Below are positions 49,956-50,138 of a stretch of DNA of 64,000 nucleotides, piece by piece. A model generated the notes under the pieces. It was not told the origin of the DNA and ran no database searches. It worked only from the letters and a program-made list of their open reading frames with translations. Numbering within the stretch: position 1 is the stretch's first letter; every line of letters starts with the position of its first letter. The stretch comes from Escherichia coli (lineage in GTDB: Bacteria > Pseudomonadota > Gammaproteobacteria > Enterobacterales > Enterobacteriaceae), in NCBI RefSeq assembly GCF_044324785.1, contig NZ_CP172127.1; one strand, 5' to 3'. Position numbers and translations under genes: made by a program.

Positions 49956-50138
49956 GTCGCTCCGGCGACCACCAATGTTCCATAGTGGCCTGTGAGGAAC
50001 GCCTTCGGGTGGCCCATGTCGCTTCAGCGACCACCAATGTTCCATGTGGCCTGTGAGGAACGCCTTCGGGTGGCCCACGTCGCTCCGGCGACCACCAATG
50101 CTTCATCTGACCTGTGAGGAGCGCCTTCGGGTGGTCAG
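49956..50138. repeat. Three tandem direct repeats of about 61 bp
   Basis: Unit GTCGCTCCGGCGACCACCAATGTTCCATAGTGGCCTGTGAGGAACGCCTTCGGGTGGCCCAT x3 with a few substitutions; each starts with a small hairpin GTCGC-TCCG-GCGAC. Confidence 0.85.

Follow-up and report, generated by a model that had tools for sequence, protein, structure and literature searches.

A triplicated STAXI module between topB and a DUF3577 gene in an Escherichia coli integrative conjugative element

STAXI ('Ssbp, Topoisomerase, Antirestriction, XerDC Integrase') was described as a structured motif of the Enterobacterales that adjoins topoisomerase III and SSB genes (Weinberg et al. 2010, Genome Biol 11:R31, PMC2864571). The original authors left both RNA and single-stranded DNA open as its active form, with a preference for RNA because of its UUCG loops (PMC2864571). 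RNA from relatives has since been detected: in P. atrosepticum two adjoining 228-nt RNA segments follow topB, with about 450 nt transcribed (PMC4710047), and STAXI relatives were found in an APEC transcriptome (PMC11599210) and, by RT-PCR, on STEC vesicles (PMC12370729). Rfam classes STAXI (RF01728) as an sRNA. Its usual companion upstream of 'integrase-domain' genes, EFASI (RF02957), occurs on the same elements and the same strand, typically about 450-600 nt downstream of STAXI. Literature searches found no functional study of either motif. As far as we found, published descriptions of STAXI do not mention a promoter, a strict co-orientation with the following genes, three fixed positions per integrative conjugative element (ICE), or a leader that sequesters a Shine-Dalgarno sequence.

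Several other systems bear some likeness to such a motif. ToxI consists of tandem RNA repeats that fold as pseudoknots; they precede a gene of the same orientation, from which a T-run separates them. The trp leader with its TRAP sites and CsrB/RsmZ are multi-site protein-binding leaders and sponges, and the phage T4 gene 32 mRNA carries a pseudoknot that is bound by its own ssDNA-binding protein. The single-stranded DNA promoters of the Frpo/ssi type, in plasmid leading regions, likewise precede the ssb and anti-restriction genes of conjugative elements.

The repeat array and its flanks

The window (the whole stretch of DNA that was analysed, 64,000 nt of one E. coli contig) matched the chromosome of E. 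coli APEC E19035 at 100% identity, within an ICE of the SPI-7/PAPI-1 type. The local order is ParB ... STY4528 'replication protein', an AcaB-like regulator, topB, the array, DUF3577, a 67-aa ORF, ssb, Rpn, PilL ... TraD. As topB (Pfam Topoisom_bac, 6e-116) ends at 49676 and the DUF3577 gene starts at 50386, the non-coding gap that a sequence-only reading had placed after topB was borne out. A scan of the 64 kb with Rfam returned only two matches above the gathering score, both to STAXI (gathering score 40.5) and both on the + strand, at 49955-50077 (61.6 bits; E-value 1.5e-10 for the whole window) and at 50078-50261 (66.3 bits; 1e-11). Sub-threshold Rfam matches in the flanks (isrK, MicC, rimP and others) were rejected as terminator-like or chance. 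The features of the region are as follows.

49877-49908, + strand: intrinsic-terminator-like hairpin and T-run (GGGCACCGT/ACGGTGCCC; 9-bp stem with 7 G-C pairs, tail TTTTTATTTT)
49913-49941, + strand: putative sigma-70 promoter of the STAXI RNA (-35 TTGACT at 49913-49918; 17-nt spacer; -10 AAATAT at 49936-49941)
49955-50016, + strand: STAXI unit 1, P1 hairpin and pseudoknot, with the five parts that follow
49956-49969, + strand: unit 1 P1 hairpin, GUCGC-UCCG-GCGAC
49972-49977, + strand: unit 1 linker, CCAAUG
49977-49981 with 49996-50000, + strand: unit 1 pseudoknot helix, GUUCC with GGAAC
49987-49990 with 50011-50014, + strand: unit 1 S1 stem, GGCC with GGCC
50001-50010, + strand: unit 1 S2 hairpin, GCC-UUCG-GGU
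50017-50077, + strand: STAXI unit 2, same architecture as unit 1, P1 loop UUCA
50078-50138, + strand: STAXI unit 3, pseudoknot GCUUC/GGAGC, a compensated variant of GUUCC/GGAAC
50139-50204, + strand: PKb, variant pseudoknot unit without P1 (CUCC with GGAG in CCUGAAAGGAG; longer inner hairpin), inside the second Rfam match
50205-50267, + strand: PKc, last pseudoknot unit, with a T7 run (AUCUGC with GCAGAU; outer stem CCUU/AAGG; unit ends at 50260)
50268-50385, + strand: three-hairpin leader from the array to the DUF3577 start, conserved in 27 distinct loci
50280-50303, + strand: leader hairpin H1
50307-50335, + strand: leader hairpin H2
50338-50385, + strand: leader hairpin H3, CUCC arm with the Shine-Dalgarno GGAG at 50374-50377
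50386-50850, + strand: DUF3577 ('STY4534 family ICE replication protein') gene (Pfam PF12101, 1.4e-58; NCBIfam NF040584)
49888-50235, - strand: spurious ORF of 115 aa

A single tandem array was reported by TRF at 49955-50134 (period 61, 2.9 copies, 90% matches, no indels, score 295), and a separate repeat search recovered three copies in register, spaced by 62 and 61 nt. Chance cannot account for three copies of 61 nt that are about 90% identical, and the three tandem units of about 61 bp that had been noticed after the topB terminator are real. The span first assigned to them, 49956-50138, holds for the three units, but the array itself continues for about 120 nt, to 50260.

Each 61-nt unit is composed of the P1 hairpin, the CCAAUG linker and a second hairpin, whose outer stem is S1 and whose inner stem is S2. 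Between these two stems lies a 10-nt bulge, UGUGAGGAAC, whose last five bases, GGAAC, pair with GUUCC of the linker; this pairing makes the unit an H-type pseudoknot. The units are not identical. The sequence-only reading had given every unit the hairpin GTCGC-TCCG-GCGAC, which is correct for units 1 and 3, but unit 2 has GTCGC-TTCA-GCGAC (P1 loops UCCG, UUCA and UCCG in units 1-3). Similarly, GTGAGGAACGCC had been assigned to all three; it is present in units 1 and 2 only, whereas unit 3 has GTGAGGAGCGCC, GAGGAAC of units 1 and 2 having become GAGGAGC, and its partner strand has changed to compensate. S1 of unit 3 is a perfect 6-bp stem (CUGACC/GGUCAG), and the units contain two conserved unpaired elements, CCAAUG and YUGNRA.

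Judged by sequence and model match, the 61-bp repeats at 49955-50138 are the core of the STAXI RNA, a family already published. STAXI elements contain the pseudoknot unit at least twice and usually three times, and the window holds three full and two variant units. They keep stem and pseudoknot pairing by compensatory change, as was found here across 72 units and in the compensated pair of unit 3. Their tetraloops are frequently UUCG/UNCG, and UUCG is the S2 loop of each of the three units here. They occur in Enterobacterales beside SSB, topoisomerase, anti-restriction or integrase genes, and here topB lies upstream with DUF3577 and ssb downstream. The Rfam model comprises one P1 hairpin followed by three pseudoknot units; in the window the module of P1 plus pseudoknot is triplicated, giving five pseudoknot units in total, and for this reason Rfam reports two adjacent matches. 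The window array is an ordinary STAXI member with its first module amplified to three copies. No EFASI (RF02957) copy was found by the Rfam scan of the 64-kb window; the array is the copy of the topB/DUF3577 context, which has a different leader after it in place of EFASI.

The PKb motif was present in 79 of the 107 arrays of the family set described below. The pseudoknot of PKc shows covariation between loci (AUCCGU/ACGGAU, CUCCGU/ACGGAG and others). Directly after PKc comes the T7 run at 50261-50267, from its sequence a possible partial terminator or the 3' end of a short form of the RNA; among the 107 arrays, a strong T-run after the last unit was seen in the lineage of the window and in a few others only.

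Upstream of the array, the hairpin and T-run core of the terminator-like site (49877-49898) was kept in relatives L002 and L003, and the site putatively closes the topB transcription unit. The promoter assigned between this site and the first unit has a weak -10 box in the window, matching at 3 of 6 positions, and was not flagged by a consensus scan. The call was made because the site is conserved across loci, not on the boxes of the window itself. In 70 of 104 arrays the motif TTGAC preceded the first CCAAT by 59-63 nt (TTGA in 91), while control windows gave 0 in the reverse complement and 0 in each of two shifted windows. When 45 clusters (<70% mutual identity in this region) were compared, the spacer was unconserved, and positions A2 and T6 of the -10 box were enriched. 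These boxes predict a start of the RNA near 49948, about 8 nt ahead of the first P1 hairpin. The sequence-only reading had missed both the named, published motif and the promoter of the array itself.

The ORF on the minus strand is an artefact, as had been suspected. Pfam gives no hit for its product, each of the three units is read in a different frame, and a relative with two units, L002, has the frame interrupted. Three units together (3 x 61 = 183 nt) are divisible by 3, and the frame is open for that reason alone. One unit of 61 nt is not divisible by 3, and this, the missing Pfam hit and the break in L002 speak against a protein-coding repeat.

Conservation of the fold and the folded strand

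An alignment was made of 72 distinct unit cores from many genera, including the three of the window. Pairing of S2 was fixed by the search pattern, and this stem was therefore kept outside the pairing statistics. The pseudoknot helix was paired in 98.6% of cases, and 4 of its 5 pairs showed double-sided changes; for S1 the values were 95.8% and 5 of 6 pairs. The covariation score was 0.564 compared with 0.222 for shuffled alignments, and none of 500 shuffles reached the observed value. When the partners were slid by 1-3 columns as a control, pairing fell to 33-48%. The path of a single pseudoknot pair could be followed: it is U-A in units 1 and 2, U-G in unit 3 of relative L003, which has the intermediate GUUCC/GGAGC, and C-G in unit 3 of the window.

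In the helices that were not constrained by the search pattern, G·U pairs numbered 47 and A·C pairs 7. Because G·U outnumbers A·C in this way, the strand that folds is the + strand, in the sense of the genes. Across loci P1 was formed by 32 different stems, and UNCG made up 22 of its 52 tetraloops; the loop preference, as read from these sequences, is that of RNA. The array is read as an RNA element that folds on the gene-sense strand and not as an oriT or iteron array.

Folding by minimum free energy was uninformative, since the repeats mispair with each other and pseudoknots lie outside the model. With these limits, the z-score of the whole array was -2.0 on the + strand and -1.3 on the - strand, and single units folded as RNA gave z = -0.6 to -1.1, no better than shuffles. 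Folded as DNA, single units gave only about -9 kcal/mol, with ill-defined ensembles.

Distribution, gene context and the downstream leader

STAXI-like units were found in 635 of 5,426 complete E. coli genomes (about 12%) and in 36 plasmid records from Pantoea, Klebsiella, Salmonella, Serratia and others. A set with one genome per species contained 72 loci, all in Enterobacterales or unclassified MAGs except for one contig labelled Pseudomonas. Among 50,697 phage records none matched. The family set used here consisted of 107 distinct arrays, found by strict anchors and fuzzy motifs; a home-made structural finder for pseudoknot units was dropped as too permissive, as it returned 327 'arrays' including many in ordinary genes.

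The number of canonical units per array was one in 58 cases, two in 42 and three in 7. Copy number varies among isolates, as the sequence-only reading had suggested might be checked, and close E. coli relatives have two or three units; for instance, FDAARGOS_1300 has two and strain G6/7 three, with near-identical flanks. Changes between one and three copies would occur through unequal recombination between units and appear to be tolerated.

Three positions of the array recur: topB-STAXI-DUF3577-ssb; STAXI followed by the EFASI RNA and an 'integrase-domain' gene; and STAXI followed by small ORFs and ArdA/ArdC. In Rfam scans of 18 annotated loci an element had at most three arrays, which shared one strand, and none of the loci of the 107 arrays had arrays on both strands. 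The identifiable genes within 1.5 kb downstream (31 integrase-domain, 23 DUF3577 and about 20 others) were all on the strand of the array, with none opposite. A third of the arrays are separated from the next gene by about 0.7 kb, which includes EFASI. Tiny plasmids carry STAXI and EFASI with no co-directional gene after them; one of these, a 3.1-kb rolling-circle Rep plasmid, has little besides Rep and STAXI-EFASI, with the STAXI sense strand opposite rep.

At the two of the three positions where the array lies directly upstream of protein genes, it is followed by a conserved extension. For the window this is the three-hairpin leader, which in its 27 distinct loci stands before either of two unrelated first genes. 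The consensus fold of these loci recovered H2 and H3, with double-sided changes at 7 pairs. H3 is predicted by this fold to sequester the Shine-Dalgarno sequence of the DUF3577 gene, the ATG of which is at 50386. A T-run at 50359-50365, before the ribosome-binding site of DUF3577, was considered as a terminator and rejected, as explicit folding placed it in the loop of H3. The consensus scan found no promoter between the array and the DUF3577 ATG.

The DUF3577 protein had no sequence match in the PDB. A Foldseek search of the PDB with its AF2 model, itself of moderate confidence (pLDDT 69), gave top matches that were all SSB/PriB OB folds (E 1e-4 to 1e-2, TM 0.35-0.59), and DUF3577 is predicted to be an SSB-like OB-fold protein.

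Possible roles of the array

The explanation that we favour, and to which we give about an even chance, is that STAXI is a promoter-proximal modular leader or protein-binding RNA platform for the DUF3577-ssb operon. The RNA would begin about 8 nt before the first hairpin and, apart from possible partial termination at 50261-50267, run on through the three-hairpin leader, the last hairpin of which would lock the Shine-Dalgarno sequence of the DUF3577 gene. A start before P1 together with run-through into the locking leader would make STAXI the front domain, close to the promoter, of a 5' leader of about 440 nt. The repeated pseudoknots would most likely be a multivalent platform that binds a protein or that protects or conditions the transcript, and in this way the platform may set the expression of the downstream 'establishment' genes, which are the SSB-like protein and SSB here and anti-restriction genes in sister copies. 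In favour of the leader are the co-orientation of about 75 identifiable downstream genes, the rarity of a strong T-run after the array, and the SD-sequestering leader, which joins the array directly to the first ORF with no consensus promoter between them. Against it, the T7 run could terminate most transcripts and leave a stand-alone sRNA, the tiny STAXI-EFASI plasmids keep the module without a target in cis, and EFASI and about 0.7 kb precede the next gene in a third of the arrays. The weak -10 box, missed by the consensus scan, and the unremarkable folding z-scores of single units also count against it.

Multi-site leaders and sponges such as those of TRAP and Csr, and the T4 gene 32 mRNA, resemble the array in having repeated structured modules and conserved unpaired bases near the 5' end of the transcript, and gene 32 also in having a pseudoknot upstream of a gene for a single-strand-binding protein. 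This is analogy only, as none of these systems has sequence or structural homology with STAXI.

A stand-alone, trans-acting sRNA of about 315 nt, reaching from its own promoter to the T7 run, is possible but rather doubtful. It would titrate a protein, as a sponge of the CsrB/6S kind, or act on transcripts, and the co-orientation with genes would then be incidental or reflect read-through. The retention of STAXI-EFASI on tiny plasmids without a downstream gene is the strongest point for such an RNA. The conserved promoter, the T7 run in the lineage of the window, the repeated modules with their unpaired CCAAUG and YUGNRA, the tolerance of copy-number change, the Rfam class and an abundance sufficient for detection in vesicles agree with it as well. 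However, most arrays lack a convincing terminator, the co-orientation is strict, the leader enters the first ORF without a gap or a promoter, and the transcribed stretch in P. atrosepticum, at about 450 nt, is longer than the array.

The leader explanation may also be taken further, in a form that we regard as speculative and rather unlikely. The sigma-70 promoter, three to five tandem pseudoknots and the SD-locked three-hairpin leader would together be a portable cassette placed before each establishment operon (SSB-like/SSB, anti-restriction, integrase-like) of SPI-7/PAPI-1-type ICEs, with the array as its sensor or landing pad. Opening of the locked ribosome-binding site, or the run-through of transcription, would depend on the array. 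This might be achieved by OB-fold SSB proteins binding the array ahead of their own genes, an autoregulation of the phage T4 gene 32 type, or by the array making RNA polymerase resistant to termination. Small plasmids with nothing but STAXI-EFASI would, on this view, be decoys of, or hitch-hikers on, this control circuit.

We consider it improbable that the array acts as single-stranded DNA on the transferred or displaced strand of the ICE, either for priming of the complementary strand (ssi/sso-like) or as an ssDNA promoter. The idea was already present in the original description of STAXI (PMC2864571), and the neighbourhood of topoisomerase III, an SSB-like OB-fold protein and SSB, all of which handle ssDNA, is consistent with it, as is the 3.1-kb rolling-circle plasmid. 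On that plasmid, however, the STAXI sense strand is opposite rep. The enriched UNCG loops stabilise RNA, while TNCG does not particularly stabilise DNA (the argument of PMC2864571), the gene-sense strand tolerates G·U pairs (47:7), and the DNA fold of a unit is weak and ill-defined. The -35 and -10 boxes of Frpo are created by a long hairpin, whereas in the window no inverted repeat spans 49913-49941: both boxes are found in unpaired sequence, ahead of the structured part, and the array folds into small pseudoknots of the RNA type.

An array of double-stranded binding sites for an ICE protein (iterons, accessory sites of oriT or operator repeats) is very improbable. Tandem direct repeats in an intergenic region of the 'replication' module, each with small palindromes, would suit it, and a protein-binding or oriT array was one of two candidates of the sequence-only reading. 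Conservation as a duplex would not select for pairing within one strand, but compensatory double changes keep distant pairing on the same strand, the pseudoknot included, the wobble pairs are strand-asymmetric (47:7), and the sequence is free to vary where pairing is kept. The typing of plasmid L008 as mobilizable was rejected as support for an oriT, since the small plasmid L011, which carries the same 0.9-kb STAXI-EFASI segment at 90% identity, was typed by MOB-suite as non-mobilizable. Literature searches found no mapped oriT coordinates for SPI-7-type ICEs; the ICEclc paper describes TraI acting on oriT1 and oriT2. This candidate was not supported, and the other one, a structured small RNA, gained support from the Rfam match, the covariation, the G·U strand bias, the conserved promoter and the RNA detected in relatives.

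A type III antitoxin that neutralises a protein encoded just downstream is scarcely credible: there is a formal likeness to ToxI (tandem direct pseudoknot repeats transcribed towards a co-oriented gene, with a T-run between), but no toxin gene of the ToxN/AbiQ/CptN type lies directly downstream, the DUF3577 product being a predicted SSB-like OB fold and not a ToxN/AbiQ-type endoribonuclease, the same array precedes unrelated genes elsewhere, and the units, at 61 nt, are long and heterogeneous instead of identical short repeats, so that the array is not a member of that class.

The array is no new kind of element; the analysis adds a testable computational model for a known orphan RNA, a model which rests on the conserved promoter, the strict co-orientation, the SD-sequestering leader and the tolerated change in copy number, all read from genome sequence. 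STAXI has been an orphan motif since 2010 and occurs in ICEs and plasmids across the Enterobacterales, where it sits at the head of the establishment genes of conjugative elements (SSB, anti-restriction and integrase-like). Should the array control them, the spread of pathogenicity and resistance islands would be subject to regulation at this point.

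Leader and genes downstream of the STAXI array

The STAXI array is joined to the first ORF by a conserved leader of three hairpins (H1, H2 and H3), which was also present at 27 related loci. The features of this region are as follows.

50268-50385: three-hairpin leader
50386-50850: DUF3577 gene ('STY4534 family ICE replication protein')
51166-51723: canonical SSB gene (ssb)
51491-52714: Rpn/YhgA-like nuclease, mechanically called ORF of 407 aa, overlapping ssb

In the final hairpin, the Shine-Dalgarno GGAG (50374-50377) is paired with a CUCC arm upstream. The 5' arm of H2 (GACGGGAA) is similar to the Shine-Dalgarno arm, and this resemblance makes an alternative pairing or a switch within the leader conceivable on sequence grounds. 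Among the window and the 27 related loci, two unrelated genes were found downstream of the same leader, encoding either DUF3577 or a 112-aa hypothetical protein.

DUF3577 is predicted, with moderate confidence, to adopt an SSB/PriB-like OB fold. As it is followed by the canonical SSB, the ICE would on this prediction code for two successive single-strand-binding-type proteins. The RefSeq start of the Rpn/YhgA-like nuclease, equivalent to ~51770, is later than the mechanical start at 51491, and so the longer start is probably spurious.

Sequences upstream of the STAXI array

The ~220 nt from the topB stop codon to the terminator hairpin (49677-49900) contain no ORF and are ~90% conserved among relatives; this segment is probably a structured topB 3' UTR. 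An Rfam match to isrK in the same region was sub-threshold (25.8 bits vs 50), on the minus strand, and resembles a terminator artefact.

A tandem array far bigger than the STAXI repeat array was detected by TRF at 46012-46832 (22.8 copies of a 36-bp unit, with 91% matches and a score of 1306). It has a 'STY4528 family replication protein' gene on one side and the AcaB-like regulator on the other. Every unit includes the palindrome GGTGCCAcTGGCACC, 15 bp long, together with an A-rich tail. RefSeq places a hypothetical CDS over the array on the minus strand, the translation of which is only (TMVPVAPSLIFC)n. The array resembles DNA arrays of the iteron or centromere type more than it does a gene.

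STAXI arrays in ICEs and on small plasmids

Up to three STAXI arrays were present per ICE, on the same strand and at fixed positions (related loci L005, L006, L013-L015, L017 and others). One position follows topB, another precedes the RNA motif EFASI together with an 'integrase-domain' gene, and the third is upstream of small ORFs that lead to ArdA/ArdC/DUF1281. The copy adjoining topB is the only one of these within the 64-kb window.

A STAXI-EFASI segment of ~0.9 kb was also found on very small plasmids, among them several Pantoea/Chimaeribacter contigs of 5-7 kb.

Small plasmids carrying STAXI-EFASI
L008: NZ_CP059920, 3.1 kb
L011: NZ_CP100506, 5.3 kb
L018: NZ_CP032706, 5.6 kb

The replicon types included rolling-circle Rep and ColE1-like with Rop. 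Identity between the plasmid segment and the ICE copy in L015 was 89-99%, and no co-directional gene follows STAXI-EFASI on the small plasmids. On these plasmids, STAXI-EFASI might be a decoy, a hitch-hiker or a strand-conversion signal.
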